A stretch of 64,000 nt of DNA, taken from the NCBI GenBank assembly GCA_003220795.1, contig QHTK01000050.1, positions 670 to 64,669 of the forward strand, in the 5' to 3' direction. The translations under genes and the position numbers were made by a program. Positions 18,692 to 36,995 of the stretch are shown here, piece by piece. The notes beneath the pieces were generated by a model, which made no database searches, was not told the origin of the DNA, and saw only the letters and a program-made list of their open reading frames with translations. This stretch comes from Gemmatimonadota bacterium. Its GTDB lineage: Bacteria; Gemmatimonadota; Gemmatimonadetes; Gemmatimonadales; GWC2-71-9. The number at the start of each line of letters is the position of its first letter. Position 1 is the first letter of the stretch.

Positions 18692-18745
18692 AAAACGACC
18701 TCCGTCTCTACTGGTTCGCGGGAGACACGTCGGGGATTGTGAGCC

Positions 18746-21110: not shown

Positions 21111-22118
21111 TTAAGAGGTGACGATCGCGCGGCGATCGCCGTTCCGTGCGCCGCACTGCCTGAAGAGCTCGGCAAACGTGGCTGCGTACGGCTCGAGAAG
21201 CATGTTGTTGACGTTGCAGCCATCCGGTCCGAAGTACTCTTCGGCGTGCGGCACGACTGATCGCCAGCGCAGCGGCTCGTCGCGGGAACGCACCGAATCC
21301 TCGGAGGGCACGAACAAGCAGACCCGACCCGCATAATGACCAGGGGTGTAGCGACGCCCCGCCGCCAACGTGGCGCGCTCCACTTTGGCGCGCAGGACCA
21401 GAGCCGGATCCGGCGTGGCAGCACGCTCGGCGGCGCGCTGCGCCTTGCGCTGGCGCAGCTTCTCGGCCACGTACGACCGCCGCTCCTCGGACGACAGCGA
21501 TACCAGCGCACGGGTGTGTCCGACCACCCATTCCACCTGTTGTGCGAATCGCTCCCGCAGGAGCGGCAAGCGTCGGAACCTGGCCGGATACGGGGCGCCG
21601 AACAGGGCGAGCAAGCTGATCGCGGTGCCCTCTTGGAGCAATCGTCGCGCCAGCTCGAACGCGATCATGCCGCCGGCGCAGAAGCCGGCGATGATGTACG
21701 GACCATGCGGCCGGCAGGCGCGGATCTGCGGTGCGAAGTACTCGGCCAGATCCTCGACGCGCGCCAGCGGCTTGCTCTCGTCCTCGAGGCCCGGAGGTTG
21801 GAGCCCGTACAACGGCTGCTCATCGCCCAGGTGCCGGGCGATGTAGCGGTAGCAGAACACGTCGCCGTTGTGTCCTCCCACGCCAAAGATGGGCGTGCGG
21901 TTCCCGTGCGGCTGCAATGGTACGATGGCCCGCGGCCGCTGCGCGAGCGTGCCGGCCACGCGCAAGAATTCCAGGATATCGTTCTTGCGTTGCTGCAGCC
22001 GATCGCGCAGCTCGGGCGTTAGCACGTCGGGGGGACCATTGCACCGCAGCCGGTCGCCGTCCGCCCACACGTGAATGTCCCGGCCGCGTAGCTCCGCGAG
22101 AAACGCCGACACCGTCAC
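21111..22118 (-). CDS. stand-alone thioesterase with N-terminal TubC-type beta-hairpin docking domain and Cys at the nucleophile elbow
   Basis: GTG 22118 overlaps the PKS stop (GTGA). Residues VSAFLAELRGRDIHVWADGDRLRCNGPPDVLTPELRDRLQQRKNDILEFL match the TubC_N docking pattern. The alpha/beta-hydrolase TE body reads PIFGVGGHNGDVFCYRYIARHLG...YIIAGFCAGGMIAFELARRL. The elbow is G-F-C-A-G, with codon TGC at 21678-21680 checked on the DNA. Confidence 0.8.
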   Translation of the reverse strand: MTVSAFLAELRGRDIHVWADGDRLRCNGPPDVLTPELRDRLQQRKNDILEFLRVAGTLAQRPRAIVPLQPHGNRTPIFGVGGHNGDVFCYRYIARHLGDEQPLYGLQPPGLEDESKPLARVEDLAEYFAPQIRACRPHGPYIIAGFCAGGMIAFELARRLLQEGTAISLLALFGAPYPARFRRLPLLRERFAQQVEWVVGHTRALVSLSSEERRSYVAEKLRQRKAQRAAERAATPDPALVLRAKVERATLAAGRRYTPGHYAGRVCLFVPSEDSVRSRDEPLRWRSVVPHAEEYFGPDGCNVNNMLLEPYAATFAELFRQCGARNGDRRAIVTS

Positions 22119-25100
22119 AGCTCGATCTCCACCCGGTTGCCGGCTACCGCGCGCCCCGTCGGAGCGCTCGTCGCCCACGCCAGCGCATCGATATAGCGCG
22201 ACAGTTCCGCGACCGTCGGTGCATCAAACAGCGCTCTTACCGGCAAGTCGATCTCGAAGGCCCTCCGCAGTTCGGCCACAATCCTGACCGCCAAGAGAGA
22301 GTGCCCACCCAGCTCCGCAAAACTGTCATGGATGCCCACTTCCTTGATCCCCAGGGCATCCTGCAAGATGCCAGCAATCTGCTTCTCCCTTTCATCCCGC
22401 GGCGCATCATAGCTGGTCTGCAACCTGGGCCGCGGGGCAAGCGCCGATCGAGTCGCACTCGCCACCAGGGCAGGGCCCTGCGCATTCAGTGATTCCAGCT
22501 TGATCCACTGATCGATGCGTGCGCCGAGATCGCCCGTCGACACGACGAGTTGGCTGGCAGTCTTCACGGCCAGCACGGTTTCCATCATCGCCGTCGCTTC
22601 CGGGGCGCTCATGCCCAGTTCCTTGAGCGTTGTCCCGAGACCCGACTCCCTCGCCGTGTCGTCCTCCAGGCGCCAAACGTCCCAGTTCACGCTCAGCCAG
22701 GGTACGGGGGATGTCCGGTTGTGTCGGCGCGCAAACGCGTCCATGTAGATGTTGGACGCGGCGTAGGCGGCCTGCCCGATGCCGCCGAGCACGGATGTCA
22801 AGGAGGACATGAGCAGGCAGAAGTCCAACGGTTTGCCGTCGAGCACGTCTTCCAGCACATGCAAACCGTGTACCTTGGCCTGAAAGTGCCCATCACAATT
22901 GTCAGGGTCGCTCTCTTTGATCTCGCGATAGCCGTCGTCTCCCACGATGCCCGCCCCATGGATGACGCCGTGGAGAACGCCAAAGCGTCGCTCCGCTTGC
23001 TCGATGACCCCTCGCATGGCGGTGGCATCCGCCACACTCGCGTTCACATACAGGACCTCGCCGCCCAGTTTCTCGATCTTCCGAACCGCGCCGATGCTCG
23101 TGCTGACGGGATCATCGGCTGGGTGGCTGCCGATCCACGCGTCCCAGGATTCTCTGCCGGGCAGGCGCGAACGCCCGACCAGCACGAGCCTCGCCCGGTA
23201 GCGCTCGGCGAGGTCCGCCGAGATCGCGACACCGATCTTGCCGAGGCCACCGGTGATGAGATACACACCGCCCTGCCGGAAGGGCGAGCGGTGAGCGGTG
23301 TTGCCTGGTACGACACGCTCGTAGGTCTGCACCCAGCGCTGCCCGTTTCGATAGGCAACGAACAGGCTCGCATCAGAGTCCAGCAGCTCTCCAACAAGGC
23401 GATCCGCGGCGGCGTCGTGCTCACTGGCAGGTGCCGCGACATCGAAATCGACATCGATACTCTTCACGCGGACATTGGCGTACTCTTGACGAATCACCAT
23501 GCACGGCCCCAGCAGCGTCGCTTTCTCCGGGCAGACGGTTTCCGTACAAGAGACCTCGTGGACGTTGTTGGAGAACGCGAACAGCTTGATCTCGTGTCGC
23601 ACGTTGTGTGCGGCGAGCGCACGGGCCAGAAACACCAGGCTGAAAAAGCCTCGGGCCTGCGCCTGCCTGAAACGGTCGCCCGCCGGTTGAGGTGCAGGAA
23701 TGCCGGTGACACTCCAGGCATGCACGATGCGATCCGGCAGGGAGCGAGTCGCCTCCAGGGCTCGGATCAGCAAGTCATAGTGCTGCGAGTTCGCGGGTTC
23801 GATGGTGAACGTGTGAGGGTCCGCTTGTTGAAAGCGTGTGCCGATCCGCACGGTCACCACGGTGTGACCAGCGGCCTCGAGCCGTGTCACCAGGGTGGAG
23901 GCCAGCCCGGAATCATCGGCACATACCAGCCACGTTCTGGCACTCTCGTGCTGCAAGGCCGCTTCATGGATGTCGATGGCACTCGGCAACAGACGAGTCC
24001 AGGACGGCACGTACAGCCATTCGGAACGGTTCGGGTTCTTGTGAACCGTCACGTCCGTCGGCGGAGCGTCCGGTGCGACACGCAGTGGCTCCAGCCAGTG
24101 CTCCTGTCGCTCGAAAGGATACGTCGGCAACGCCACTCTGCGGCGCTGCCCACCGGACGGGACGTTGTCCCACGTGAGCTCGGCGCCTGACAGCCACAGC
24201 CTGGCGATGCCGTGCCACAGGAATTCGACGTCCGATTGGTTTTCGTAATGGTGCCGGATCGAGGACACCACCACCGGATCTCCGCCATCCCGGCGGTCCG
24301 GATGCTGCATCGCCAGCACGCCCAGCGTCCGGCCGGGCCCGGCTTCCAGGAGGATGGGATTCTTGAATTGCCAGAGTTCATGCAAGGCATCGCTGAACCT
24401 GGCGGTTCGAGTGCCATGCGTCGCCCAATAGGACGGCGTGGTCGCCTCGCGTCGCGTAATCCAGGTCCCGGTGACGTTGGAGATGTAGGGAATCGTCGGC
24501 TCGCCCAAACGAACCTTCCCCACCTCTTCCTCGAATGCCTGCACGATCGGATCAAGCATGCGCGAGTGAAAGGCGTGGGCATTCTGCACGGGCCGACAAA
24601 TGATGCTCTTGGCGTTCAACATCCGCTCGAACTCGCGGATCGCCGCAGCCGGACCTGCCACCACACACAAACGTGGCCCGTTGATCAACGAGATCGACAG
24701 CTCCTCGGTCAGTAGGGGAAGCAGTTCCTGTTCCGGCAGCGTCACGGCGAGCATGGCTCCCTGCGGCAACGCATGGACGAGCCTGGCTCGCGACGCGATC
24801 AGCCGCACGGCATCCTCCAGCGACAACACCCCAGCCAGACACGCCGCCACGTATTCACCCATGCTGTGACCGACAATGGCGTCGGGCGTGATACCCAACG
24901 ATTGCCAGAGACGGGTCATGGCATATTCGATCGTGAACAGCGCCGGCTGGGCAAACAGCGTCTGGTTGAGCGTCCGGGCGTCTGGATCCTCCGCGGCAGC
25001 CGTCGTGCGACCGAGCATCTCCTTCAGGTCGATCCCCTTGCTCTTGCCCGCCTTCTTCCAGCGCTGGCCAGGTGGGTACAGGATGTTGCGGATGTCGATC

Positions 25101-26803
25101 TCCAGGTGCGGCTCGAGCAAGCGCGCGCAGCGATCGACTTCTTGCCTGAACACGGGCCACCCTTCGTACACATCATGGGCCATGCCCGGGTAGTGATCGC
25201 CGATACCGGGCAGCAACAGGATCACCGGTCGCCGTGGCTCGCTGGTGCGGCCGGTAACGACGCGCTTCGAGTCTTCCTGTCCGAGGGCGGTAATGGCGTC
25301 CGCGCGGTCGACGCAGACGAGACCCCGCCGATGTGGAAACGCTTTGCGTCCGATGCGCAGGGTGTGAGCCACGTCGCTCAGGTTCACGCAGTCGTTCCCG
25401 ATCAGGAACTCCCGTAAGCGCTGCGTGGCCAGGTCGAGCGCCGTTCTAGTCTTCGCCGACAGCAGCAGCACGTGAGGAGGACGGGCATCCGTCGATGCAG
25501 CCGGCTCCGGCGCTTCCTCGAGCACGAGGTGGGCGTTCGTGCCGCCCATGCCGGTGGACATCACGCCGGCTCGTCTGGGTCCGTCGCTGGTCCAGTCCCG
25601 CAAGCGCGTGTTCACGTAGAATGGCGTGCGGGCAAAATCGATTTCGGGATTGGCCTCCGTGAAGTGGAGACTGGGCGGAAGCTGTCGGTGCTGGAGGGCA
25701 AGGACCGTCTTGATGATACCGGTGACGGCCGCCGCGGCGTCGAGGTGTCCCACATTGGTCTTTACCGAACCGATGGCGCAGTAGCCGGAGCGCTGGGTAA
25801 AGGTGCGGAACGCCTTGGTCAAGGCTCGGACCTCGATGGGATCCCCGACTGGCGTTCCCGAGCCGTGGGCCTCGAGGTAGGTGATGCCGTCGGCCTCGAC
25901 CCCGGCATTGGCCAGCGCCTCCACTACCGCATCGGCCTGGCTGTCGACGCTGGGCGCCGTGTAACCGGCCTTGGCCGCACCATCGTTGTTGACGGCCGAT
26001 CCCTTGATCACGGCGTGGATGGCGTCCCCGTCCGCGAGGGCGTCCGCCAACCGCTTCAGCACCAGGATGCCGCCGCCGCTACCGAACACGGTGCCGTTGG
26101 CCTTGGCGTCAAACGCCCTGACGTGCCCGTCCGGCGAGACGACTCCGCCACCATCACAGAAGTAGCCTGCGCGATGCGGGACCCGCACTGACACTGCCCC
26201 AGCCAAGGCCATGTCGATTTCTTCACTCAAGAGGCTCTGACGGGCCAGGTGGACGGCCACCATGGAGGTCGAGCACGCCGTCTGAACGGTGATGCTGGGC
26301 CCCTTCAAGTTGAGCTTGTAAGAGATCCTGGTGCTCAGAAAATCCTTGTCGTTGCCGATGAGGGTGGGGATGTACTCCTCGGCGAGGCGGCGGTTCAGCC
26401 CGACGTTCGTGAAATAGGTGTTCAGGGCGGTTCCGCTGAACACGCCGACGCGTCCCTGCCAGCGATCCGGGTCATACCCGGCGTGCTCGAGCGCCTCATA
26501 GGCCAGTTCCAACAGGAGCCGGTGCTGTGGATCCATCGTCTTGGCTTCCATCGGCGAGAAGCCGAAGAATCCTGCGTCAAAACCGCCCGGCTGCTCCAGG
26601 ATCGGCGCGGCTTTTACGTAGCTCGGGTTGCTGAGATAGGATGGCGGCACGCCCGATTCCAGGATCTCCTGATCGGAAAGCCGAGCAATCGACTCGATGC
26701 CTGCGGTCAGGTTACGCCAGAACTCGTCGATGTCGCGCGCGCCTGGGAAGCGACCGGCCATCCCGACGATGGCGATATCGGACTCGGTATGCACGGCAGT
26801 CAT
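22115..26803 (-). CDS. type I polyketide synthase, single module KS-AT-KR-ACP
   Basis: Approximate domain spans follow. KS is 25514-26782 (TACSTS Cys at 26273-26275, EAHGSGT, NVGHLD). AT is 24317-25231 (GHSMGE Ser at 24863-24865, HAFHS). KR is 22517-24019 (GGLGKIG, K..S..YAASN). ACP is 22172-22393 (LGGHSL). ATG 26803 overlaps the A-domain stop (TGATG). Confidence 0.92.
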   Translation of the reverse strand: MTAVHTESDIAIVGMAGRFPGARDIDEFWRNLTAGIESIARLSDQEILESGVPPSYLSNPSYVKAAPILEQPGGFDAGFFGFSPMEAKTMDPQHRLLLELAYEALEHAGYDPDRWQGRVGVFSGTALNTYFTNVGLNRRLAEEYIPTLIGNDKDFLSTRISYKLNLKGPSITVQTACSTSMVAVHLARQSLLSEEIDMALAGAVSVRVPHRAGYFCDGGGVVSPDGHVRAFDAKANGTVFGSGGGILVLKRLADALADGDAIHAVIKGSAVNNDGAAKAGYTAPSVDSQADAVVEALANAGVEADGITYLEAHGSGTPVGDPIEVRALTKAFRTFTQRSGYCAIGSVKTNVGHLDAAAAVTGIIKTVLALQHRQLPPSLHFTEANPEIDFARTPFYVNTRLRDWTSDGPRRAGVMSTGMGGTNAHLVLEEAPEPAASTDARPPHVLLLSAKTRTALDLATQRLREFLIGNDCVNLSDVAHTLRIGRKAFPHRRGLVCVDRADAITALGQEDSKRVVTGRTSEPRRPVILLLPGIGDHYPGMAHDVYEGWPVFRQEVDRCARLLEPHLEIDIRNILYPPGQRWKKAGKSKGIDLKEMLGRTTAAAEDPDARTLNQTLFAQPALFTIEYAMTRLWQSLGITPDAIVGHSMGEYVAACLAGVLSLEDAVRLIASRARLVHALPQGAMLAVTLPEQELLPLLTEELSISLINGPRLCVVAGPAAAIREFERMLNAKSIICRPVQNAHAFHSRMLDPIVQAFEEEVGKVRLGEPTIPYISNVTGTWITRREATTPSYWATHGTRTARFSDALHELWQFKNPILLEAGPGRTLGVLAMQHPDRRDGGDPVVVSSIRHHYENQSDVEFLWHGIARLWLSGAELTWDNVPSGGQRRRVALPTYPFERQEHWLEPLRVAPDAPPTDVTVHKNPNRSEWLYVPSWTRLLPSAIDIHEAALQHESARTWLVCADDSGLASTLVTRLEAAGHTVVTVRIGTRFQQADPHTFTIEPANSQHYDLLIRALEATRSLPDRIVHAWSVTGIPAPQPAGDRFRQAQARGFFSLVFLARALAAHNVRHEIKLFAFSNNVHEVSCTETVCPEKATLLGPCMVIRQEYANVRVKSIDVDFDVAAPASEHDAAADRLVGELLDSDASLFVAYRNGQRWVQTYERVVPGNTAHRSPFRQGGVYLITGGLGKIGVAISADLAERYRARLVLVGRSRLPGRESWDAWIGSHPADDPVSTSIGAVRKIEKLGGEVLYVNASVADATAMRGVIEQAERRFGVLHGVIHGAGIVGDDGYREIKESDPDNCDGHFQAKVHGLHVLEDVLDGKPLDFCLLMSSLTSVLGGIGQAAYAASNIYMDAFARRHNRTSPVPWLSVNWDVWRLEDDTARESGLGTTLKELGMSAPEATAMMETVLAVKTASQLVVSTGDLGARIDQWIKLESLNAQGPALVASATRSALAPRPRLQTSYDAPRDEREKQIAGILQDALGIKEVGIHDSFAELGGHSLLAVRIVAELRRAFEIDLPVRALFDAPTVAELSRYIDALAWATSAPTGRAVAGNRVEIEL

Positions 26804-28437
26804 CAACGCCCCACCCGCATGAGCGGCTCCGGCAAGGCCTTGCGATCCGCTTTCCCGCTCGGTGTCACGGGGATTGCGTCGATTCTCTCGAATCGATTGG
26901 GGATCATATAGTCGGGAAGGTGTTGCTTGAGGAAATGCTTCAGACCCGCCATCTCCAGGTCAGATTTGCAGACCACGTACGCGACGATGAGGATGATGGT
27001 GTCCGAGTACTGCTTGACCACGGCCACGCAGTCGCTGATGCCCGGGTACTCCCGGATCGTGTTTTCAATCTCGCCCAGTTCGATGCGCAATCCCCGGATC
27101 TTTACCTGGTGATCCTCCCGGCCGAGATACTCGATATTCCCGTCCGGCAGCCAGCGGGCGATGTCGCCGGTTCGATAGACGCGTTCGCCGGGGTTCGCCG
27201 GATTGTCGGTGAACTTCTCGTCGGTCAGGGCGGCGTTGTTCAGGTAGCCGCGCGCCAGACCGATCCCCGCGATGCACAACTCACCGGGCTCCCCGATCGC
27301 CATCGACCGGCCGTCTCTGATGATGGAGAGCGTGATGTTGTGGATCGGTCTCCCGATGGGAATGATGTCGAAGTCGTTGTGCGGGGGGCAATCGAAATAG
27401 CTGACGTCGACCGTCGCCTCGGTCGGCCCGTAGAGGTTGGTGAGTCGGGTCCCGGTCTTGCTGCCCCAAATATCGTTGAACTTCCTGACGTGACTGGGCG
27501 TCAGCGCTTCACCGCTCGCAAATACCCGCCGCACCGACGCCAGCCGGTTCACCACGCCCGCAGGCTTGCCGTCCAGGTACTCGAGAAACACGTTCAGCAT
27601 CGATGGAACGAAGTGCATGACGCTGACGTGATGTGTGTCGATGGTTTCGACAATGGCCAGGGGATTCCGTTCCCCGCCCGGCACCAGGAAGCAGAGCGTG
27701 GCGCCCTGCAGGGCCCACCAGAACAACTCCCACACCGAAACGTCGAAATAGTAGGGCGTCTTTTGCAGAATGACGTCCCGGTGATCGATCGGGTAGGCGT
27801 GTTGCATCCAGTGCAAGCGGTTGACGAGAGAGCGATGCTCGATCATCACCCCCTTGGGTTTGCCGGTCGACCCCGACGTATAGATCACATAGGCCAGGTC
27901 CCGCGGCGTGTTGACGATCGCGGGGTTCGCGGTTGACGCCCGGTACACGTCGGGGTCGTCGAGATTGATGATCCGCCCCCTGAAGGCGATCCGGTCGGCG
28001 GTCTTGTTCTGCACCAACAGGACGGTGACCCCCCCATCCTTCAGCAGGTAGGAAATGCGATCCGGCGGATTGTCTGGCGAGATGGGCAGATAGGCGCCGC
28101 CGGCCTTCAGGATGCCCAGGATGCCCACGATCATGGCAAAGGAGCGTTCCACCAACAACGCGACGATGTGTCCCGGCCCGACACCCGCGGCCCGCAACAC
28201 ATGCGCCAGTTGATTGACCTTGCCATTGAGCTGCGCGTACGTGAGCGATGGCACGCCGAGCACGGAGTCGTGGTCGCAGATGACGGCCGTTCTATCGAAA
28301 TGCCTGTCGAGCTGCGCCTCGATCAATGCCTGCAGCGTGACGTTATCGGGAAACGGCGTCTCCGTGCGGTTGAATTGCGCGATCCTCGCGAGATCGGCGG
28401 CGGTAGCGACGCGTGGCGGGTGAGCGGCCATGGGCAT
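26803..28437 (-). CDS. stand-alone NRPS adenylation enzyme, predicted L-serine-activating (ZmaJ-like)
   Basis: A-domain core motifs LTYAQLN, YTSGSTGKPKG, FDVSVWE, NLYGPTE, YRTGD, GRxDxQVKIRG and PSGKADRK. There is no C or PCP domain. The 10-residue code from my by-eye alignment to GrsA-PheA is DVWHFSLVDK. ATG 28437 overlaps the upstream stop (TGATG). Confidence 0.85.
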   Translation of the reverse strand: MPMAAHPPRVATAADLARIAQFNRTETPFPDNVTLQALIEAQLDRHFDRTAVICDHDSVLGVPSLTYAQLNGKVNQLAHVLRAAGVGPGHIVALLVERSFAMIVGILGILKAGGAYLPISPDNPPDRISYLLKDGGVTVLLVQNKTADRIAFRGRIINLDDPDVYRASTANPAIVNTPRDLAYVIYTSGSTGKPKGVMIEHRSLVNRLHWMQHAYPIDHRDVILQKTPYYFDVSVWELFWWALQGATLCFLVPGGERNPLAIVETIDTHHVSVMHFVPSMLNVFLEYLDGKPAGVVNRLASVRRVFASGEALTPSHVRKFNDIWGSKTGTRLTNLYGPTEATVDVSYFDCPPHNDFDIIPIGRPIHNITLSIIRDGRSMAIGEPGELCIAGIGLARGYLNNAALTDEKFTDNPANPGERVYRTGDIARWLPDGNIEYLGREDHQVKIRGLRIELGEIENTIREYPGISDCVAVVKQYSDTIILIVAYVVCKSDLEMAGLKHFLKQHLPDYMIPNRFERIDAIPVTPSGKADRKALPEPLMRVGR

Positions 28438-29603
28438 CAGTCGGATCGGGCCAACGGGCCGCATCTGCCGGCTTGATCGACGAAGATCTTCCCCAGGATG
28501 TCTTCATGGATCTGGGTGGTGCCTTCGATGATCTCCATGATCTTGGCGTCCCGGTAATACCGGGACACCGCGGAGGATCCGTGACAGCCCGCCGCCCCCT
28601 GGATCTGCACGGCATCGGACGCGGCTCGCACCACGGCTCGCGACGTGAAGTACTTGGCCATCAAGGTCTTCTCGAACGCTTCCGGACGATGGTCGTCCTC
28701 CGCGCGGCAGGCAGTGTGGCACAACGCGCTCGCGGCCTCCAAATCGGTGCCCATGCGCGCGATCAGCGATCGGACCATCCCCATGTCGCCCACGGTCTTG
28801 TCGCCGATCTTCCGCATGGCGGCGTGGGCGATGCTTTCCTCGAAGCATCCTCGCAGCAGCCCCAATGCCGAGCAGGCCGTGCTGATGCGTCCGTAGTGCA
28901 AGCCTACCGGGGCGACGTGGGACAAGGCGTAGCCGGGCTTGCCAACGAGGTTGGCGGATGGCACTTCCACATCTTGGAAGTGCAGCTGCGCCAGGCCGGC
29001 CGCGCGGAACCCCAGCAAATCGGAGATGGGTTCGATGCGCAGACCGGGAGTGTCCTTGGGCACCACACACGCCACCGAACGTCCTCCCAGGGTCCCGAAC
29101 ACCAGAAACACCGCGGCGAACTGGGCGCAGCTGATCCATTTCTTGCTTCCGTTCAGCACGAGCCCCTGTGAGTTCCCGGTGAACTCCGTCACCAGCGACT
29201 GCATGGCACTGCCGGCGCCCGGCTCCGTCAGGGCGAAGGCCCCGAGCATCTCCCCCTTGGCGAGGGGAGGAAGCCATCTGCGCTTCTGCTCCGTCGTGCC
29301 CCACTTGAGGAGCGCCATAGACACCATCGCTTGGACCGTGAGGACGCCCGTCAAAGCGGACGATGCTCTCCCGAAGGCTTCATTCAGCAAACCGAACGTG
29401 ACGATATCCCATCCCTGGCCGCCATACTCCGGCGGCAGACTGCAGCCCAGGTAGCCGGCCTGGGCCATCTGCGAGATCACGCCCGCGGGGACCTGCTGGT
29501 CCCGGTCCCACTGCTCGGCGAACGGGGCGACGTTCAGCGTGACAAAGGCCTTGAATTCCTCTCTCTTCTCAACCACTCGGCCGTCCGTTCTTGCGCAGGA
29601 CAA
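28437..29603 (-). CDS. acyl-CoA/acyl-ACP dehydrogenase (FkbI/ZmaI-like)
   Basis: ACAD fold with YYRDAKIMEIIEGTTQI (catalytic Glu block). The start is uncertain: TTG 29603 or GTG 29576. Both overlap the ACP gene's end. Confidence 0.8.
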   Translation of the reverse strand: MSCARTDGRVVEKREEFKAFVTLNVAPFAEQWDRDQQVPAGVISQMAQAGYLGCSLPPEYGGQGWDIVTFGLLNEAFGRASSALTGVLTVQAMVSMALLKWGTTEQKRRWLPPLAKGEMLGAFALTEPGAGSAMQSLVTEFTGNSQGLVLNGSKKWISCAQFAAVFLVFGTLGGRSVACVVPKDTPGLRIEPISDLLGFRAAGLAQLHFQDVEVPSANLVGKPGYALSHVAPVGLHYGRISTACSALGLLRGCFEESIAHAAMRKIGDKTVGDMGMVRSLIARMGTDLEAASALCHTACRAEDDHRPEAFEKTLMAKYFTSRAVVRAASDAVQIQGAAGCHGSSAVSRYYRDAKIMEIIEGTTQIHEDILGKIFVDQAGRCGPLARSD

Positions 29604-29847
29604 AGGCCGTCGTCGCGTTGAGCGACTTGAAATTCTCGATGTCCAGATCGTCCCGCCCCATTTCCATAGCGAACGTCTTCTCGATGAAGGTCATCAACTG
29701 CACCGCAAACAAGGAATTGACGATTCCCGATTCGAACAGGTTGGCGTCATCGTCCAAGTCCGGGACGGCGATCGAGCTCAGGATGAAGCTCCGGATCGTG
29801 TGTTTGATGCCGTTCGGGTCCGCGGTGCTCATGGACTCCTCCGTCAT
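29569..29847 (-). CDS. free-standing acyl carrier protein (FkbJ/ZmaH-like)
   Basis: 92 aa with FESGIVNSLFAVQLMTFIEKTF (Ser attachment motif, NSL variant of DSL). ATG 29847 overlaps the upstream stop (ATGA). An alternative ATG lies at 29832. Confidence 0.8.
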   Translation of the reverse strand: MTEESMSTADPNGIKHTIRSFILSSIAVPDLDDDANLFESGIVNSLFAVQLMTFIEKTFAMEMGRDDLDIENFKSLNATTAFVLRKNGRPSG

Positions 29848-30707
29848 TCCAGGCCCGGATAGGCATGAAATCCCCTTCCGGTCTTCCGCCCCAAATGGCC
29901 GGCATGCACCAGCTTTCTCAGCAACGGACAGCAGCGGTACTTCGGATCCCGAAAGCTTTCGTACAGGACATCGAGCGACCGCATCACCGTGTCCAAGCCG
30001 ATCAGGTCCGCGGTTTCCAACGGTCCCATCTTGTGCCCGAAGCATTTCTTGAAGATCGAGTCGATCTGCTCGGCCGTCGCCACGTTATCCTGCAGCACAA
30101 ACGCGGCCTCGTTCATGAACAAATGGGAAATCCGGTTGGACACAAAGCCCGGCATGTCCTGGACGATGATGGCTTCCTTGCCAAGCACGGCAAACAGCCG
30201 CAGCAACGTGTCGACGGTCCCGTCGGAGGTATGGAACCCGCGAATCACCTCGACGGTCGGTTTCAGATGAACCGGATTCATGAGGTGGATGCCCACCACG
30301 TTGGCCGGACGCCCGGTGGCGCTGGCTATCTGCGTGATCGGGATACACGACGTATTGGCCCCAAAACACACCTCGCGTGGCGCCACTCGATCCAGCTGCT
30401 CATAGACCGGCTTCTTGACATGCCAGTCCTCGGTCACGTTCTCGATGATGAAGTCACATGACGCCACGTCCTGCAGATCGGTCGTGAACACCATGCGTTG
30501 CAGGGCGTCCTCCGGCGTTACGCGTGGCAGCGTCTTCGACAGCAAGGGGACGCAGCGGACGTTGTTCAACACGGCGGCTTGCGCGCGCTTCAGGATGTCT
30601 TGCGAGATGTCCACCACGACCGCGGATATCCCATGCAGCACCAGGTCGGTTACGACGCCGCTGCCGATGTTTCCCGCGCCCAGCACGCCGATCTGTTTGA
30701 ATTGCAT
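29844..30707 (-). CDS. 3-hydroxyacyl-CoA/ACP dehydrogenase (FkbK/ZmaG-like)
   Basis: MQFKQIGVLGAGNIGSG NAD fold plus a 3HCDH C-terminal domain (GFVSNRI...GPLETADLIGLD). ATG 30707 lies 2 nt after the upstream TAA. The track ORF extension to 30842 is spurious. Confidence 0.85.
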   Translation of the reverse strand: MQFKQIGVLGAGNIGSGVVTDLVLHGISAVVVDISQDILKRAQAAVLNNVRCVPLLSKTLPRVTPEDALQRMVFTTDLQDVASCDFIIENVTEDWHVKKPVYEQLDRVAPREVCFGANTSCIPITQIASATGRPANVVGIHLMNPVHLKPTVEVIRGFHTSDGTVDTLLRLFAVLGKEAIIVQDMPGFVSNRISHLFMNEAAFVLQDNVATAEQIDSIFKKCFGHKMGPLETADLIGLDTVMRSLDVLYESFRDPKYRCCPLLRKLVHAGHLGRKTGRGFHAYPGLE

Positions 30708-30709
30708 GG

Positions 30710-33700
30710 TTACGACGCCTTCCGCCGCGTGACGTTGCGCCGCCGCTGACCCCGTAACGCGGCCGCGGCGGCGCTGCCGGCGCCGTCGCGCCCGCCGGAG
30801 GCCGCGCGTAATTTGGCGGCCAACAGGCTCACGGTGGGGCACTCGAACAGGCTGACGATCGACAGATGCTGCTTCAGCTCCCGCTTGATCGCGGCAATCA
30901 CCTGCACCGCCCGGAGGGACGTGCCGCCCACGTCGAAGAAATTGTCGTGGATCCCGATGCGCCGGCCCAACACCCTACTCCAGATGTTCAACAGCGCGGC
31001 TTGTAGCGTGCTGGACGGTGCGACGTCGACCGGAGCATCGAGCGGCTGCTTTCGGAGCCGGTATGCCTCGATGGCCTTTGCGACCCGGTCGATGTCGTAC
31101 AGGTGTTCCCCGATCACCTGCAGGGGCTCCGACCGATCACCGACGCCGAATCCCCAGACCTGTCGGGGCGGGCGGGCGTCCGGGTGGGGAGGCGCCGGCG
31201 CCTCGAGCCCGGGGTGCGCCGTTTGGTCGGGGTCGTATGCGAGGCTCGCCAGGCGGTCAGCGGCGAACGTCCAGGACGCGCCGGCCGGGTCGCCGTCGGG
31301 ACCGCCGATGTTCCGGATGAACTCCCGGACCGGCGCATTCTTTTCCGTCGGCCGATGGGAGAGTTCCACGAGGCGTTTGCCTTCCCTGGCCGCCTGCTGG
31401 CCGAGGTGAGCCAGGACCGCGTGCTCCACGCCTTTGCCCAACACCCGACAGCTCAACAGCAGGGTATCCACTTTGTAGCGGTCGGTCGCTGTCTCATACA
31501 TCACGACCCCGACCAGCCCGTAGTCCCCGAATCGGTCGACGACGTGAACCACCAGACAGGTGACATCGTTCTGCTGCAAGATGTCTCGAATCTCCTGCTC
31601 CGAGCGTCGGATGGTGGTGAAGTTGAATTGGTTCGTTCGGAACGTCAGCTGCGACACACGGGCGAGCTGGTCGTCGGTCGCTTCGGCGATCTCGACGCGC
31701 AGTTGCAGCCCGTTCACAAAGTCTTTCAAAGAGAGGGTTTGCTCCCGGAACCGTTGCCGCTCCGCGTTTTCCTGGTACATCCGGGTGCGGGCGCGATCTT
31801 CCTCGGTCGCACCCGCGTGATCGAACGCCCACACACGATTCAGGAACGCCGGGATCGACTCGCTGCGCTGCGGCAGCTGCAACGTCAACACGCCGGGGCA
31901 GTTGATGCGGACATCCGCGCAATCCACCGGGTTGTCATCGATGAAGATGAAGCTCTCCAACCCGAGATTGAGCTCGTGCGCGAGCGACATGACGTTCTCC
32001 GACTTGCTGTTCCAATTGATGCGCCGCGCAACCAGGTGCTCGCGCTTCAGCACCATGTCGGTCCGCTGGTCGAAGACGTCCAGCACATCCTGCTCGTTGT
32101 TCTTGCTGCACAGACAGAGCAGCATGCCGGCGTTCATGCGCCCGAGCATGAATTCCTGCAACCGGCGGAACGGGGCGCTCACTTCGATGCCCTGCGGACC
32201 GTCCTCGCCGCACACCCCCTTCCACAACGTGTTGTCGCAGTCCAGCACGATCACCTTGAATGGCGGTCGCTGCAGGTTGTAGATGGTGCGGACCAGCGTC
32301 GTCCCGATCGCCGCGTAGCCCTGCGAGGTGTACGGGATGTGACCCGCCTGATCACTGTGCGGGTCGTAGTACTCGTCGACCGGATACTGCTGCAACGGCG
32401 ACGCCGAGCGGATCGTGTGCACGTTCGGTATCGTGGCGGCCGCCGTCCGCAAGGTCTGCTCGGCCTCGTCCAGCGCCGCCTTGAGGTCGGCGTCGGCTTC
32501 CGCGGGCGGGGTCCTGGGGCAGACACACAACACCACGGGCGCCGTGGCCTGGCTCATGAACGACCGCAGCGCGGTGCAGAAGTCCCGGACGGTTCGCTGT
32601 AGGCCGCCTGCCGTCTGACGTGACTGATCCAACCCGGATGCGACGGGCGCGTCACCCCGGGTTCCATAGAGATTGAACAACCCGGCATGCTCGAGCAGCC
32701 GTTCGTGTTCGACGGCGCAGCGGAACCCCTTCTGGACGAGCAGTGCTTCGATCTGTTTGACCGCCTGCTCGGTGCGGTCGTGGATCTCGATCACAATCTG
32801 GGCGATCTTCGGCCAGTCGCGATCGTCAATGCCCCGGATGATGTCCAGCTCGCTCTTTTCCGCATCGATCTTGAGGAGGTCGATCTTGTCGATCCGGTAC
32901 TCTCGAATCATCTCCGACACGGATGTCAGACGGCACTCGTGGGTCGTGCGACTGAGCCGGTTTGCGGTGAGCTCGGTGACATATTCCTCCACCGCGTCCC
33001 CTGCCACCGACGTCTCGCTGCTCAGGGTGTTCCGCACTACCGCTTGAATGGCCTCGCGGTCCTCGGTTTCATCTGCATGAAACCCCGAGAACACGGAGGA
33101 CTTCTCATAGAAGGTCAAGGTCGCGGTCTTGGGCCGGTCCGACACACCGACGTTCAGGGCTCGGACCTGCGATCCGTAGGCCTCGCAGTTGGCCTTCAAG
33201 AGCTCATACACGGCGGGCGCCGGTTCACAGGCGTAGATCGTCGGGTTGCGACAGCGGCTCATCACAAACAACGAGAACAGCCCGATGTTGGCCCCGATAT
33301 CCACCACCGTGGCTCCGTCCGGCAAGCGGATGCCATGCTTCAGATAGCAGCGATCTTCGAAGATCTCCTTGTAGACATAGTCCGTTTCATACCGGTTCAG
33401 ATGAACGATCTCCAGGCCATTGGGCAGGACGCATCTGGTCCGGTCGCCGAAGCACTGGTCCGCCCGTTCCCTGGTGAGCGTCATGACCCCGCGCGGATCC
33501 CCCGTGGCCCACGCCTCCAACCCCAAGAGGATGACTTTGACTGCGTCGCGGCGCGTGCGGAACGCGCTGCCCGCGTCCAGCAGCTGCTGAAAGATCTGAT
33601 TGTAGGGCGCAAATTCGACGTGGATCGGCGTGCCGAAATGGTCACCCCAGAAGCGCAGGGAATCCTCTACCGGCTCAGCGGTGAAATTCGAGGCGATGAC

Positions 33701-34543
33701 GAGGTTGGCGGCCGTCGCTTCACCGGCCGCGTCGGCGCGGTCCAGCACGCTGAACGTGACGCCGGAGAGATCGAAGTACGGCGTGCCGGACTGGTCGAAC
33801 ACCCGAACGTTGCCGACGAGACTCTTGCCATCGCGTTCACTCTCCGGAAGCAGCACGGCGTGCCCCCAGAGCGTATCGGGGAAGCGGACGTCCGTTACTG
33901 CGATCTTCTCGATCGACCGCAGGATGAACGTCTTCCCCTGCTCGAGCATGCAGGACGCCAGTAACTGGGTGGCGGAGTCGAGCAGGCTCGGGTGCAGGTC
34001 AGGTTCGTCGACTGCTCCGTCTCGGTGCGCTACGGCAAGCCGCCCCAAGGACTGGTCCCCTGCCCGCCAGATCGACGCAACGTGTTGAAACCCGGGCCCG
34101 TATTGGTTGCCATTTTCACGGAGCGTCTTGTAGAACCGGTCCGAGTCGATCAGGTCATGAGACTGCGCTTGGAACGCTTCGATGGAAAACGCTTCCGTGC
34201 TCGCTCTCGGAGACGGTGCCGGGTTCCGGTCGATGTCGAGCTTGGCAGCAGGCTCCGCAACCCCTGCTTCGTAGAACGTGTATTCAACGCGGCCGTTGCC
34301 GTGATCCCCGACGTCGACCCTTACGATCGTGTCTTCTGCCGAAACAATGATGGGATTGTGAAACGTCACGTTCCGGACGAGACCCGCAACGCCCTTGGAG
34401 CGTTCACGCTCCAGGCGCAGGGCCATGTCGACGTAGCACGACCCGGGCAGCACGACCATGTCGTGGAACCCGTGATCTGCCAGGTACGGCATGGAACGAA
34501 TGCCGATCCTGAATTCGGCGGAGGCTACTTCAGTTGTGCTCAC
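30710..34543 (-). CDS. multidomain loading-type protein: PKS dehydratase - FkbH-like domain with embedded FkbM methyltransferase - ACP
   Basis: Approximate domain spans follow. DH is 33719-34522 (LADHGFHDMVVLPGS and LLDSATQ). The FkbH N-subdomain is 33494-33712 (NLVIASNFTAEPVEDSLRFW). The FkbM MTase is 32654-33421 (VVDIGANIGLFSLF...IDLLKIDAEKSELDII). The FkbH HAD core plus C-terminal domain is 31229-32551 (VLDCDNTLW, LLSCRVLGKGVE). ACP is 30809-31021 (FFDVGGTSL). I prefer GTG 34543 (GGGGA SD) over TTG 34573. Confidence 0.85.
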   Translation of the reverse strand: MSTTEVASAEFRIGIRSMPYLADHGFHDMVVLPGSCYVDMALRLERERSKGVAGLVRNVTFHNPIIVSAEDTIVRVDVGDHGNGRVEYTFYEAGVAEPAAKLDIDRNPAPSPRASTEAFSIEAFQAQSHDLIDSDRFYKTLRENGNQYGPGFQHVASIWRAGDQSLGRLAVAHRDGAVDEPDLHPSLLDSATQLLASCMLEQGKTFILRSIEKIAVTDVRFPDTLWGHAVLLPESERDGKSLVGNVRVFDQSGTPYFDLSGVTFSVLDRADAAGEATAANLVIASNFTAEPVEDSLRFWGDHFGTPIHVEFAPYNQIFQQLLDAGSAFRTRRDAVKVILLGLEAWATGDPRGVMTLTRERADQCFGDRTRCVLPNGLEIVHLNRYETDYVYKEIFEDRCYLKHGIRLPDGATVVDIGANIGLFSLFVMSRCRNPTIYACEPAPAVYELLKANCEAYGSQVRALNVGVSDRPKTATLTFYEKSSVFSGFHADETEDREAIQAVVRNTLSSETSVAGDAVEEYVTELTANRLSRTTHECRLTSVSEMIREYRIDKIDLLKIDAEKSELDIIRGIDDRDWPKIAQIVIEIHDRTEQAVKQIEALLVQKGFRCAVEHERLLEHAGLFNLYGTRGDAPVASGLDQSRQTAGGLQRTVRDFCTALRSFMSQATAPVVLCVCPRTPPAEADADLKAALDEAEQTLRTAAATIPNVHTIRSASPLQQYPVDEYYDPHSDQAGHIPYTSQGYAAIGTTLVRTIYNLQRPPFKVIVLDCDNTLWKGVCGEDGPQGIEVSAPFRRLQEFMLGRMNAGMLLCLCSKNNEQDVLDVFDQRTDMVLKREHLVARRINWNSKSENVMSLAHELNLGLESFIFIDDNPVDCADVRINCPGVLTLQLPQRSESIPAFLNRVWAFDHAGATEEDRARTRMYQENAERQRFREQTLSLKDFVNGLQLRVEIAEATDDQLARVSQLTFRTNQFNFTTIRRSEQEIRDILQQNDVTCLVVHVVDRFGDYGLVGVVMYETATDRYKVDTLLLSCRVLGKGVEHAVLAHLGQQAAREGKRLVELSHRPTEKNAPVREFIRNIGGPDGDPAGASWTFAADRLASLAYDPDQTAHPGLEAPAPPHPDARPPRQVWGFGVGDRSEPLQVIGEHLYDIDRVAKAIEAYRLRKQPLDAPVDVAPSSTLQAALLNIWSRVLGRRIGIHDNFFDVGGTSLRAVQVIAAIKRELKQHLSIVSLFECPTVSLLAAKLRAASGGRDGAGSAAAAALRGQRRRNVTRRKAS

Positions 34544-35237
34544 GTATCGTCCCCGGGATTGCCTTCTGTGCAACGATGGCGCCGATCAGTCCGGGTCCGG
34601 GCACAAAGCTGTAAAGCGTCCACCCACAACGGTCCCCGGGCGTCGAGTCCACGCGGAGAATTCGGGCCGGCTCACCCGGCTCAAACGAAACATCGAAGCG
34701 ATCGAGCGGGTGGGAGAGCCCGTCACCGAGCGCCTTGATGAAGGCTTCCTTACGGGTCCAGCAAGAGAAGAACGCGAGGGGCTTGTCGCTCGGGTCGAGG
34801 GCGCGGTAGGCCTCGCTCTCACGCCGGGAAAACATGCGGGCTGCGATGTCGTCGGCGTCGGGAATCACCCGCACGGCTTCGACGTCGATTCCGACCTCGC
34901 GCCCGAAGGCAAACGCATAGACGGCCACGTCGTCGCAGTGCGATACGCTGAATCGCAGGTTCGAAGCCGCGACACGTCGCGCGAGCGCCGGCTTGCCGCG
35001 TTCCCCGTACACCAGCTCGACCGAGTCGGCCCCGATGTCCAACCGCGCCGCGAGCAACTGGCGCAGACGCGCCCGCGCGACGGTAAACCGGCGGCGATCG
35101 CATTCGAAAGCAAAGCGACCGGCTCTGTGTCGCTCCTCCTGCGAGAGCAGCGCAGCCGATGCGCGGAGCGCACCCGGCCCCACGTCCAGTCGCGTCACCA
35201 CAACGTCGACGGCAGCTGCGCCTCCGCAAGCGGGCAT
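34530..35237 (-). CDS. Sfp-type 4'-phosphopantetheinyl transferase
   Basis: Motifs GKP...FSVSHC, VGIDVE and FSCWTRKEAFIKALG. Start set to ATG 35237 (GGAG 9 nt upstream). The track ORF extension to 35381 is Arg-rich noise. Confidence 0.85.
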   Translation of the reverse strand: MPACGGAAAVDVVVTRLDVGPGALRASAALLSQEERHRAGRFAFECDRRRFTVARARLRQLLAARLDIGADSVELVYGERGKPALARRVAASNLRFSVSHCDDVAVYAFAFGREVGIDVEAVRVIPDADDIAARMFSRRESEAYRALDPSDKPLAFFSCWTRKEAFIKALGDGLSHPLDRFDVSFEPGEPARILRVDSTPGDRCGWTLYSFVPGPGLIGAIVAQKAIPGTIREHN

Positions 35238-35405
35238 GGTTTCTCCGGGATCCAATGCTGCGGCGTCCCTCACGGTAGATCGTGCGGCGGCTGGGTGGTG
35301 CAAATTTCGGACTGGGAGGGGACGCGGGCACCCGTGTCCGTTCCTGTTGCGTCGACGCCACACACCGTGTGCGTTCACCACGTTGCGGCGGCGGCCACAT
35401 GAAGA

Positions 35406-36995
35406 CTAGGGCCGCAGCGATCCGCAATCGTAATGGCTTATGCTCCGCAGCGTCGGCTCGAGCCGCAAGCGCATGAGGCTCCTCAACACCGCCGCCAGGG
35501 ACCGCTGCGCAATCACGAGCTCGACCTCGCCGGGCGCCTTCGCGTAGCGACAGGGGTACAGAGCGAGCCTGCGGTAGATCCGCGCTTCGGGATAGGACGG
35601 CACCTTCATCTCTTCCATGGACCACACCCCGTAATCCAGCACATTCCGGCCAGACTCGTCCTGCGTCACGTACACGCGGATGGCGGAAGGAAGGTCACGT
35701 CGTACGCCGTCGCTGACGTAGATCTGAGCCCTCTTCGTGTCGCCAGAGAACAGCGTGAAGGAGAGATATGAGTCCCACAATTGGACGAAGCTCAACGCCG
35801 GAAGGATGGCGAACAGCACGAGGACGGCCACGTGATACCAGCCGTTCGCGGGCGAGAGGATTTGCCGAGCCGGCAGGAGCGCCGTGTTGCGAAACAGGAG
35901 GAAGTTGAAAGCGATCATCGCGAGGTTCCATGGCCACACGCCTCGATCGATGTTGTGTCCCAGCGGTCCGAGACAGACGAGGATGAAGAGGTGCATCGGG
36001 ATGGCGGCGATTATCGCGGTGAACCGCCATCGTGTGGTGATCAGGCCGATGCCGATGCCCACTTCGAGGAGCGCCACGCCGGCGCCCAACCACGCGAGGT
36101 ATTCCACCATGCCGGCGGGAATGGTGAAGAGGCCTTGCAGAAACCACGGGAAGACACCGTTGACAAAGCTCCGGTTGAGCTTATGGAGGCCACTCCAGAG
36201 GTAGACGCTCGCCACGATGACACGACAGGTGTTGAGCGCCACCGCCGCCGGGGCGGCGGGTTCCCGCTTCCAGTAGTGCAGGGCGAGGGCGCCGAGCATG
36301 AAGACGTACTGATAGAACCAGGGCTGCCACCGGGACTGGTCCAACACGCTCAGACCGCCCGCGATGATCAGGATCGCGGCGAGCGGTCGCAGCGGTCTCC
36401 GCGCCGCCGCCGCCGCGCCGAGGAGCAGGAGGAGCACGACGAACACGACGTAGTCGAGTGGAAAGGGGATCGTGGGTGAGTGGGCCCACACCGGCATGAG
36501 AGGATAGGTGCGAGAGGAGACCCAGAGTTTCTGCGACAGGAGCAGTCCAGCGGCGAGGGCCAGGCACAGTGCCAGCTTGAGTCGCTCCAGCCGGACGTCG
36601 TCCCCGACCTGATTTTCTAGACGTTCCGGGCGGAAGAGGAACCGCGAGAACCACTGACGCCTACCTGCTACGACCCGATACGCCGCCTCCACGAGCCAGA
36701 TCAGGGGACGGGTCGAGAAGACGGCCGAGAACCGTCGCCATCCGACCGCGTCCATGAGGTAGAGGCTCGCCCGACCAGCACTCAGCACCACGCCCTCGGG
36801 CGTCAGGACGTGGATGGCGTGCGCGCAGCGGCGGGCGAGCGCCTCGGTCATCGGTGGGCGTGGCGCCACCTGGTACGGGACGGGAAAGAGTCGATCGTGC
36901 CGATCCTGTCGCTTGATCCAATCCACGGCTCGACGACAGAAGCCGCAGGTCCCGTCCCAGAACACCCATGCTTGATCCGCGCGGCGCTCGCTCAT
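35406..36995 (-). CDS. DCC1-like thiol-disulfide oxidoreductase (CxxC) domain fused to a large polytopic membrane domain of unknown function
   Basis: The N-terminal 120 aa read WVFWDGTCGFCRRAVDWIKRQD...F.PYQ (DUF393/DCC pattern). About 9 TM helices follow, then a ~120-aa soluble tail. ATG 36995 is 12 nt after the upstream gene's stop. Confidence 0.6.
   Translation of the reverse strand: MSERRADQAWVFWDGTCGFCRRAVDWIKRQDRHDRLFPVPYQVAPRPPMTEALARRCAHAIHVLTPEGVVLSAGRASLYLMDAVGWRRFSAVFSTRPLIWLVEAAYRVVAGRRQWFSRFLFRPERLENQVGDDVRLERLKLALCLALAAGLLLSQKLWVSSRTYPLMPVWAHSPTIPFPLDYVVFVVLLLLLGAAAAARRPLRPLAAILIIAGGLSVLDQSRWQPWFYQYVFMLGALALHYWKREPAAPAAVALNTCRVIVASVYLWSGLHKLNRSFVNGVFPWFLQGLFTIPAGMVEYLAWLGAGVALLEVGIGIGLITTRWRFTAIIAAIPMHLFILVCLGPLGHNIDRGVWPWNLAMIAFNFLLFRNTALLPARQILSPANGWYHVAVLVLFAILPALSFVQLWDSYLSFTLFSGDTKRAQIYVSDGVRRDLPSAIRVYVTQDESGRNVLDYGVWSMEEMKVPSYPEARIYRRLALYPCRYAKAPGEVELVIAQRSLAAVLRSLMRLRLEPTLRSISHYDCGSLRP

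Follow-up and report, generated by a model that had tools for sequence, protein, structure and literature searches.

The window, by which we mean the whole 64-kb stretch of DNA analyzed here, carries eight minus-strand open reading frames (ORFs) at positions 21111–35237, and these eight genes are a tightly packed operon in the genome of a soil Gemmatimonadota bacterium. In order of transcription they encode a 4'-phosphopantetheinyl transferase (PPTase), a four-domain protein that includes an FkbH domain, four proteins related to ZmaG, ZmaH, ZmaI and ZmaJ of the zwittermicin pathway, a single polyketide synthase (PKS) module, and a thioesterase (TE)-like enzyme. The operon is a new, minimal combination of known PKS sub-pathways, with two enzymological oddities.

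Domain identities were established by Pfam and NCBIfam profile searches, with scores compared to curated cutoffs; all features of the operon lie on the minus strand. The PPTase (34530–35237) is of the Sfp/HetI type (Pfam ACPS, 4e-18; AASDHPPT_N, 5e-12) and is 235 aa long when read from ATG 35237, the reading frame being open as far as GTG 35381; against the NCBIfam HetI-like profile it scores 148 bits, under the equivalog cutoff. A PPTase gene also stands immediately upstream of the FkbH gene in the related loci L003, L005, L006, L011, L014, L016, L037, L053, L082 and L086. The FkbH protein (30710–34543; 1277 aa) contains, by both profile collections, dehydratase (DH), FkbM-type methyltransferase (MT), FkbH and acyl carrier protein (ACP) domains. 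It is followed by a 3-hydroxyacyl-CoA dehydrogenase family enzyme (HCDH, ZmaG-like; 29844–30707; 3HCDH_N, 2e-45; 3HCDH, 1e-30), a free-standing ACP of 92 aa (ZmaH-like; 29569–29847; PP-binding, 7e-5), an acyl-CoA dehydrogenase family enzyme (ACAD, ZmaI-like; 28437–29576; the three Pfam Acyl-CoA_dh domains N, M and 1), and a stand-alone adenylation (A) enzyme with predicted activation of L-serine (ZmaJ-like; 26803–28437; AMP-binding and AMP-binding_C; TIGR01733, 434 bits against a cutoff of 317). The last two genes encode the PKS module (22115–26803; 1562 aa), which comprises ketosynthase (KS), acyltransferase (AT), ketoreductase (KR) and ACP domains, all found with Pfam, and the stand-alone TE-like enzyme of 335 aa, which starts with a TubC-type docking domain (21111–22118; TubC_N, 5e-18; Thioesterase, 4e-22).

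Every junction, re-read from the sequence, is either overlapping or abutting. The PPTase stop codon (TGA 34532–34530) and the FkbH-protein start (GTG 34543) overlap by 14 nt; the FkbH-protein and HCDH genes meet at TAA-cc-ATG (30712/30707); the HCDH and ACP genes share an ATGA overlap (29847/29844); the ACP stop (29571–29569) and the ACAD start (GTG 29576) overlap by 8 nt; TGATG overlaps follow at 28439/28437 and 26805/26803; and the PKS and TE genes are joined by GTGA (22118/22115). In the near-identical contig L002, a metagenome gene caller began the FkbH gene at ATG 34492, but GTG 34543 is the better start, because homologues of the protein align from residue 7 of the GTG-start form and E10 and S17 are conserved. 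A preliminary description of this DNA had listed the eight genes in this order with near-zero intergenic space, and had credited the operon with its own PPTase, a single KS, three carrier domains, and the FkbH, A, KS-AT-KR-ACP and TE domains. All genes are present, the profile searches confirm every domain above threshold, and the count is three carrier domains, one KS and one AT. With domain E-values of 1e-18 to 1e-88 on kilobase-long ORFs, the calls are not attributable to chance.

The serine and glycerate branches

The block HCDH-ACP-ACAD-A follows the order zmaG-H-I-J of the annotated zma region (NZ_CP137769.1). HCDH is 54.8% identical to ZmaG over 281 aa, the free ACP shares 43% identity with ZmaH and 38% with ZmaD, and ACAD is 47.4% identical to ZmaI, of the aminomalonyl route, against 35.1% to ZmaE, of the hydroxymalonyl route. 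When a collection of annotated plasmids was searched with the A enzyme, ZmaJ (50.8% identity) was among the best of the 3342 records with a match. The roles of ZmaG, ZmaH, ZmaI and ZmaJ have been described (PMC6395733, PMC4207774). Because the gene order is the same and the identities lie at 43–55%, we assign the block, by homology and synteny, as a putative aminomalonyl-ACP cassette. Its four genes adjoin in every cassette-bearing locus with enough sequence, L016 being the exception, and are absent as a block from cassette-free relatives.

The specificity code of the A enzyme, read against the PheA motifs, is DVWHFSLVDK, which by established Stachelhaus assignments we take to be a serine code, as in EntF; the code and the identity to ZmaJ agree with the Ser-type A domain of the preliminary description. 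Wherever the code is readable in a cassette-bearing locus, across at least five phyla, it is either identical or altered by a single conservative V-to-I substitution. A top PDB match of the A domain is 8xjz_C ("Peptide synthetase", 613 bits), which may be ClbH.

The glycerate branch resides in the FkbH protein, in which the DH (approx. 33734–34513; PKS_DH_N/PS-DH), the MT (approx. 32717–33301; FkbM methyltransferase TIGR01444, 85 bits against a cutoff of 38), the FkbH domain (approx. 31295–32260; TIGR01686, 315 bits against a cutoff of 147) and the ACP (approx. 30815–30997; PP-binding, 5e-14) follow one another. In 15 homologues of 61–79% identity the catalytic DH residues His24 and D189xxxQ193 and the YGP motif are invariant, as are the HAD motif DCDNTLW and the glycine-rich motif of the MT in homologues of this identity range. 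An FkbH domain with the HAD DxD motif and an ACP behind it in cis, as found here, are the features of a glycerate loading module, and the identical four-domain architecture occurs in >644 metagenome homologues.

The FkbH protein is best read, from its sequence context, as a starter-unit loading module rather than as an extender pathway. In cassette-free relatives (Symploca, Acaryochloris, Chloroflexota, Thermodesulfovibrionia) the DH-MT-FkbH-ACP protein immediately precedes KS-AT-KR-ACP, which argues for a loading role; where the cassette is present, its four genes are all that separates the two. The loader reading draws further on the sole ACAD being of the ZmaI type and on DH-less MT-FkbH-ACP proteins that stand at the head of nonribosomal peptide synthetases (NRPSs) in Nostoc and Anabaena loci. 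The preliminary description had seen two unusual-precursor routes in the operon. The co-occurrence of an FkbH route with a ZmaGHIJ-type serine route stands, whereas a second extender pathway, as in zwittermicin, is not how the FkbH protein is best understood.

The same enzymes could in principle be combined differently, with FkbH, MT, HCDH and ACAD making a methoxymalonyl-ACP extender on the ACP of the FkbH protein (a fused FkbG/H/I/J/K-type pathway) and seryl-ACP serving as the starter. All five activities (FkbH, ACP, HCDH, ACAD and O-methyltransferase) are formally present, and fused multidomain extender factories exist, such as PelG of pellasoren (PMC6395733). We nevertheless consider this arrangement improbable: the ACAD and the free ACP are nearer to ZmaI/ZmaH than to ZmaE/ZmaD, the AT lacks the signature of ATs that use ACP-linked extenders, the conserved DH would be left without a role, and an orthologous DH-MT-FkbH-ACP protein precedes the same PKS module in loci without HCDH and ACAD, where it can only load.

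As a loader, the FkbH protein would handle a glycerate unit. For the MT-FkbH-ACP module of suomilide and dysinosin, glycerate loading and O-methylation have been proposed (PMC8609519). In the window protein, (methyl)glyceryl-ACP is the most plausible substrate for dehydration by the DH, although this is the least certain step; we place the action of the DH on the starter because dehydration of the 2-amino-3-hydroxy product would give only an unstable enamine. Starter dehydration reportedly has a precedent in the DH-KR-FkbH-ACP loaders of trans-AT PKSs (bryostatin BryA and similar), where the DH is said to dehydrate glyceryl-ACP.

Two highly conserved segments of the FkbH protein (residues 284–345 and 648–760) lie on either side of the MT. 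Ralstonia FkbH-like proteins match from residue ~616–648 on, and those of Nostoc and Streptomyces from ~280. The flanking conserved segments and the different starts of these matches suggest that the MT may be inserted into an N-terminal FkbH subdomain.

The PKS module, chain release and the proposed pathway

The PKS has the features of a modular cis-AT type I module. The KS (approx. 25661–26782) carries the Cys/His/His triad in the motifs TACSTS, EAHGSGT and KTNVGHL, the AT (approx. 24326–25210) has its GHSxG motif and His in GHSMGE and HAFH, the KR (approx. 22670–23269) retains Tyr and Asn, and the ACP (approx. 22190–22381; PP-binding) retains its Ser. A C-terminal tail, DALAWA...NRVEIEL, is encoded at 22118–22189. 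Neither the window nor any related locus contains a discrete AT, so the cis-AT must deliver aminomalonate if this unit is the extender, and the module is predicted to use it.

The TE-like enzyme combines a TubC-type docking domain (21960–22112; TubC_N, PF18563, 65 bits against a cutoff of 26), for which the PDB matches include the TubC docking domain 2jug, with a thioesterase fold (21246–21890; Thioesterase, 4e-22) that contains the nucleophile Cys147 (codon 21678–21680) in the motif GFCAGG, as the preliminary description had claimed for a docking-domain TE with a Cys nucleophile. The 70 stand-alone family members that we sampled came from 355 representative clusters (E below 1e-30), and Cys147 is invariant in all 70; the GxCxG Cys is likewise kept in every variant, whether the TE stands alone, is fused to the PKS, or follows condensation (C) and thiolation (T) domains. 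In the oxyanion-loop motif GGHNGD, His83 and Asp86 are conserved at 91% and 87%, respectively (family alignment P0241–P0390), and it is speculation that they might substitute for the canonical His and Asp.

Direct transfer from the PKS to the TE is supported by the tails of the proteins that precede it. In L083 the order is PKS, C-A-T NRPS (A code DLFNNALTYK) and then the same TubC_N-docked Cys-TE. The C-terminus of the window PKS, ...DALAWATSAPTGRAVAGNRVEIEL, matches the tail of the L083 NRPS, ...DALSWLASSGQPRPAADNRVEIDL, and not that of the L083 PKS. A tail of the form DAL(A/S)W...NRVEI(E/D)L is found on whichever protein precedes the TE, and the tail of the window PKS and the TubC-type domain of the TE are accordingly regarded as a candidate docking pair.

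We propose, with moderate confidence, that the operon encodes a self-contained one-extension hybrid PKS line that joins a glycerate starter to serine-derived aminomalonate. The PPTase would convert the three carrier domains to their holo forms. The FkbH domain would dephosphorylate phosphoglycerate from glycolysis and place the glyceryl unit on its own ACP, the FkbM-type MT would O-methylate it, probably at the 2-hydroxyl, and the DH would most likely remove the 3-hydroxyl to give a 2-methoxyacrylyl (enol-ether) starter. In parallel, the stand-alone A enzyme would load L-serine on the free ACP, and HCDH and ACAD would oxidize seryl-ACP to aminomalonyl-ACP, as ZmaJ/H/G/I do. The AT of the module, the only AT, would transfer the aminomalonyl unit to the module ACP, the KS would condense it with the starter, and the KR would reduce the 3-keto group. 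The PKS tail would then dock on the TubC-type domain of the TE, whose Cys would accept and release the chain. The product is predicted to be a small beta-hydroxy-alpha-amino acid with a C5 backbone, such as 2-amino-3-hydroxy-4-methoxypent-4-enoic acid, or else the lactone of such an acid; we infer the AT substrate, the role of the DH, the site of methylation, the release chemistry and hence the product. Only tentatively, and as a rather doubtful extension, do we suggest that this minimal form of a phylum-spanning soil pathway yields a small and reactive metabolite of a new kind, a beta-hydroxy-alpha-amino acid bearing an enol ether or a beta-lactone, by two enzyme solutions without precedent: a malonyl-motif cis-AT that accepts aminomalonyl-ACP, and a Cys-only, His/Asp-less, TubC-docked TE.

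Several observations weigh against the aminomalonate pathway. The AT has the motifs GHSMG and HAFH, which are of the malonyl-CoA type, as in ZmaK-AT and CurL; missing from it are GYSxG and GxxH, the motifs that characterize the two ATs known for aminomalonyl- or hydroxymalonyl-ACP, ZmaF (GYSLG/GPFH) and ZmaA-AT (GYSFG/GAAH) (PMC4207774). The combination that marks a dedicated AT of the ZmaF/ClbG type (GYSxG, GxxH and a hydrophobic "RXR" motif) is absent from the window, where the "RXR" motif reads ICR and is hydrophobic at its first residue only. In favor of the pathway, cassette-bearing and cassette-free ATs differ systematically at four sites adjoining known specificity motifs: (i) GHSM versus GHSI; (ii) (Q/R)N(A/T/G/S)-HAFH versus xTS-HAFH, e.g. 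QNA versus HTS; (iii) AQPAL versus TQPAL; and (iv) the first "RXR" residue, linked to carrier recognition, where 31 of 35 cassette-bearing ATs have I, L or V and most cassette-free ones D, E or Q, with I in ZmaF and M in ZmaA-AT (PMC4207774). These differences are suggestive, yet confounded with phylogeny. The best PDB match to the AT is 8xjy, which may be ClbI. A further point in favor is that ZmaA-AT, an AT for an ACP-linked extender, ranks third among the PDB matches and is the second distinct protein among them.

Two relatives and two further domains add to the points against. In L016 (13743–16478), from a Burkholderiales metagenome-assembled genome (MAG), the order is PPT-FkbH-HCDH-ACP-A-PKS-TE, with no ACAD between ACP and A, so that either the ACAD is encoded elsewhere or the serine unit halts at the aldehyde stage. 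In L084 (10001–17410; P0183), KS-AT-KR-ACP-C-T-TE is one fused protein with no A domain in cis, and adenylation in this cluster falls to the stand-alone Ser-A enzyme alone; in such relatives this enzyme may serve a second or different client and perhaps load two carriers. The DH could act on the KR product instead of the starter. Finally, when the TE family was aligned with the canonical Ser-Asp-His TE that holds the same position in L019, the canonical Asp position of the window TE fell on Gly174 and the canonical His position on Val303. The His column of the family holds G, H, A or V, with His in 8 of 70, and the alignment of the 70 members contains no conserved Asp behind the next ("LFxP") strand.

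Some of these points would be accommodated if the AT loaded malonyl-CoA. The module would then make a glycerate-plus-acetate 3-hydroxyacyl chain, and the serine unit on the free ACP (seryl-, 2-amino-3-oxopropanoyl- or aminomalonyl-) would be used otherwise, for instance as an amine or hydroxyl nucleophile that releases the chain from the Cys "TE", or in longer relatives at the C domain, to give an N- or O-acylated amino-acid product. The AT motifs GHSMG, HAFH and QPAL are those of the malonyl-CoA ATs ZmaK-AT and CurL (PMC4207774), the C-T-TE fusion of L084 needs the stand-alone Ser-A enzyme for its acceptor, and a Cys TE without the canonical His and Asp is better suited to handing the chain to a good nucleophile than to hydrolyzing it. 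Still, we judge this alternative rather unlikely, as ZmaGHIJ-type products are documented solely as KS extenders, an amine nucleophile alone would give the ACAD step no purpose, the window version has no C domain, and cassette-bearing ATs differ from cassette-free ones at specificity-linked positions.

Distribution and genomic setting

A scan of species-representative genomes with the FkbH protein returned 466 relatives. The six-gene core FkbH-HCDH-ACP-ACAD-A-PKS is collinear in MAGs, with few rearranged forms, and its hosts, all uncultured, belong to the Acidobacteriota, Burkholderiales and other Betaproteobacteria, Gemmatimonadota, Verrucomicrobiota, Ignavibacteriota, Vicinamibacterales and Pseudomonadales. 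What lies downstream of the PKS varies: a C-domain NRPS (C-A-T, C-A-T-TE or C-T-TE) in ~20 loci, a second KS in one locus, the docked stand-alone TE in the window, L082, L016 and L024, and a TE fused to the PKS in L011 and L086. The TE-only layout is found at 56–84% identity across different lineages with unrelated flanks, and L086 is a seven-gene cluster whose flanks are also unrelated. Since TE-only versions recur independently and the flanks of L086 are unrelated, the minimal form appears to be a self-sufficient, recurrent unit.

The preliminary description had considered the architecture undescribed. A characterized cluster of this architecture was found neither in the literature searched nor in the annotated plasmid collection, with MIBiG outside the comparison, and no record of the plasmid collection covers at least 80% of the FkbH protein when queried with it. 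To that extent the claim holds; the architecture is, however, not a one-off but a reduced member of a very widespread, uncharacterized family, most members of which have an additional NRPS module.

From the gene content of its relatives, the TE-only form of the window looks like a module-deletion derivative of a longer PKS-NRPS line, which raises the question of whether it is a decaying, productless remnant. A point in favor of decay comes from L082, the closest relative of the window with the same eight genes and with a PKS that is 83% identical: at 6761–6970 it retains a 42-aa remnant (90% identity) of a class I methyltransferase (Methyltransf_24), whose gene is intact between HCDH and ACP in L083 (4374–5123) and L003 (~6463–7149). 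No trace of it is present in the window, where these genes meet at the ATGA junction. That the window operon itself is such a remnant is nonetheless highly improbable, given that its eight ORFs and catalytic motifs are intact, its junctions are coupled, the docking tail is kept on the PKS, the TE-only layout recurs in different lineages and also as PKS-TE fusions, and the 90%-identity cluster of the window PKS holds 74 member sequences from many metagenome contigs.

In L083, a 544-aa Pel9A-like beta-helix protein is encoded between the A and PKS genes (8348–9982). Beta-lactamase-fold genes near three related loci were considered as ClbP/ZmaM-type prodrug peptidases and rejected as neighbors by chance, since they share only 26% mutual identity and are absent from the window.

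Soil MAGs that bear the name Gemmatimonadetes or Gemmatimonadota bacterium, e.g. 13_2_20CM_69_27, encode proteins identical to the polynucleotide phosphorylase (PNPase) and the citrate synthase of the window. The flanking genes are of the housekeeping type (M20 peptidase, DinB, citrate synthase, phosphofructokinase, alanine dehydrogenase and PNPase). GC content is 58–66% within the cluster (~22000–36500) and 68–71% outside it, and the lower value in the cluster than in its housekeeping flanks suggests that it was acquired horizontally as an island in the Gemmatimonadota genome; the TE gene, at 67%, is nearer to the host composition. A promoter and terminator scan of the window gave nothing above shuffled expectation, so the operon boundaries rest on gene spacing and GC content. 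Rfam and tRNA scans found no RNA genes in the window.

Directly upstream of the PPTase gene, within the low-GC stretch, a minus-strand gene (35406–36995) encodes a 529-aa fusion of a DCC1-like thiol-disulfide oxidoreductase and a MauE-like membrane protein. It was considered as a ninth cluster gene and set aside as not part of the core, for among the related loci it occurs only in the near-identical L002. On the other side, two ORFs overlap: one on the plus strand (18739–20520; 593 aa), which has a GDYXXLXY domain at its C-terminus, and one of 455 aa on the minus strand, which has no family match.

Comparison with known systems

Aminomalonyl-ACP is among the rarest PKS extender units and has been characterized in few pathways, such as those of zwittermicin and colibactin. 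In the window family, the putative aminomalonyl cassette is combined with a glycerate loader and just one cis-AT module within 7–8 genes and ~14 kb, a size that permits synthesis and expression. The family abounds in Gemmatimonadota, Acidobacteriota and Verrucomicrobiota, phyla from which hardly any natural products are known, and identification of the product would provide a first handle on a widespread soil metabolite. The system also allows a clean test of two points, namely the handling of an ACP-linked amino extender by an AT with "malonyl" motifs, and chain release by a Cys-only TE.

The zwittermicin A cluster of Bacillus cereus/thuringiensis plasmids shares with the window the order zmaG-zmaH-zmaI-zmaJ, followed directly by a PKS-containing gene. 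Unlike the window, it delivers aminomalonyl-ACP by a dedicated trans-AT, ZmaF (GYSLG/GPFH; PMC4207774), has a separate FkbH/ACP/ACAD set (ZmaN/D/E) for a hydroxymalonyl extender, and includes multiple modules of both the NRPS and the PKS type as well as a prodrug mechanism. The window, in contrast, has one ACAD and one module, with FkbH fused into the loading protein, and of the zwittermicin-type whole-cluster features (multi-module NRPS/PKS, ZmaN/D/E, ZmaF and a prodrug peptidase) none is present in it. Colibactin biosynthesis reportedly employs the same enzyme set in the same order (HCDH, ACP, ACAD and Ser A, as clbD-clbE-clbF and ClbH-A1), with a product that is used by PKS modules; it is said to differ in its trans-AT, ClbG, and in having the A domain within a larger NRPS.

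The loading protein finds its counterparts in the loading modules of the aeruginosin family (suomilide SuoB, dysinosin), in which an FkbM-type MT, FkbH and ACP are likewise fused at the head of the line, and Nostoc and Anabaena loci match residues ~280–1245 of the window protein at 42–47% identity. The SuoB and dysinosin modules differ from it in that they have no N-terminal DH and feed a C domain rather than a KS, with a product that is also sulfated. BryA-type DH-KR-FkbH-ACP loaders reportedly have a KR where the MT stands, which would give lactate and not a methyl enol ether, and are said to operate in a trans-AT context.

For the TE, the nearest comparison is with ObiF1 and SulM, the Cys-TEs that form a beta-lactone and a beta-lactam. 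ObiF and SulM retain two catalytic residues, an Asp behind beta7 and a His behind beta8 (PMC11298585), whereas by sequence alignment the window TE family conserves neither the relocated Asp nor the His. The window family is also unlike ObiF and SulM in its TubC-type dock, and in relatives it follows NRPS modules too. What the window TE has in common with ObiF1 and SulM is the Cys nucleophile, the lack of the post-beta6 Asp and a small product, in the window a predicted one (PMC11298585), together with one obafluorin-like trait, a predicted substrate with a beta-hydroxy-alpha-amino terminus.

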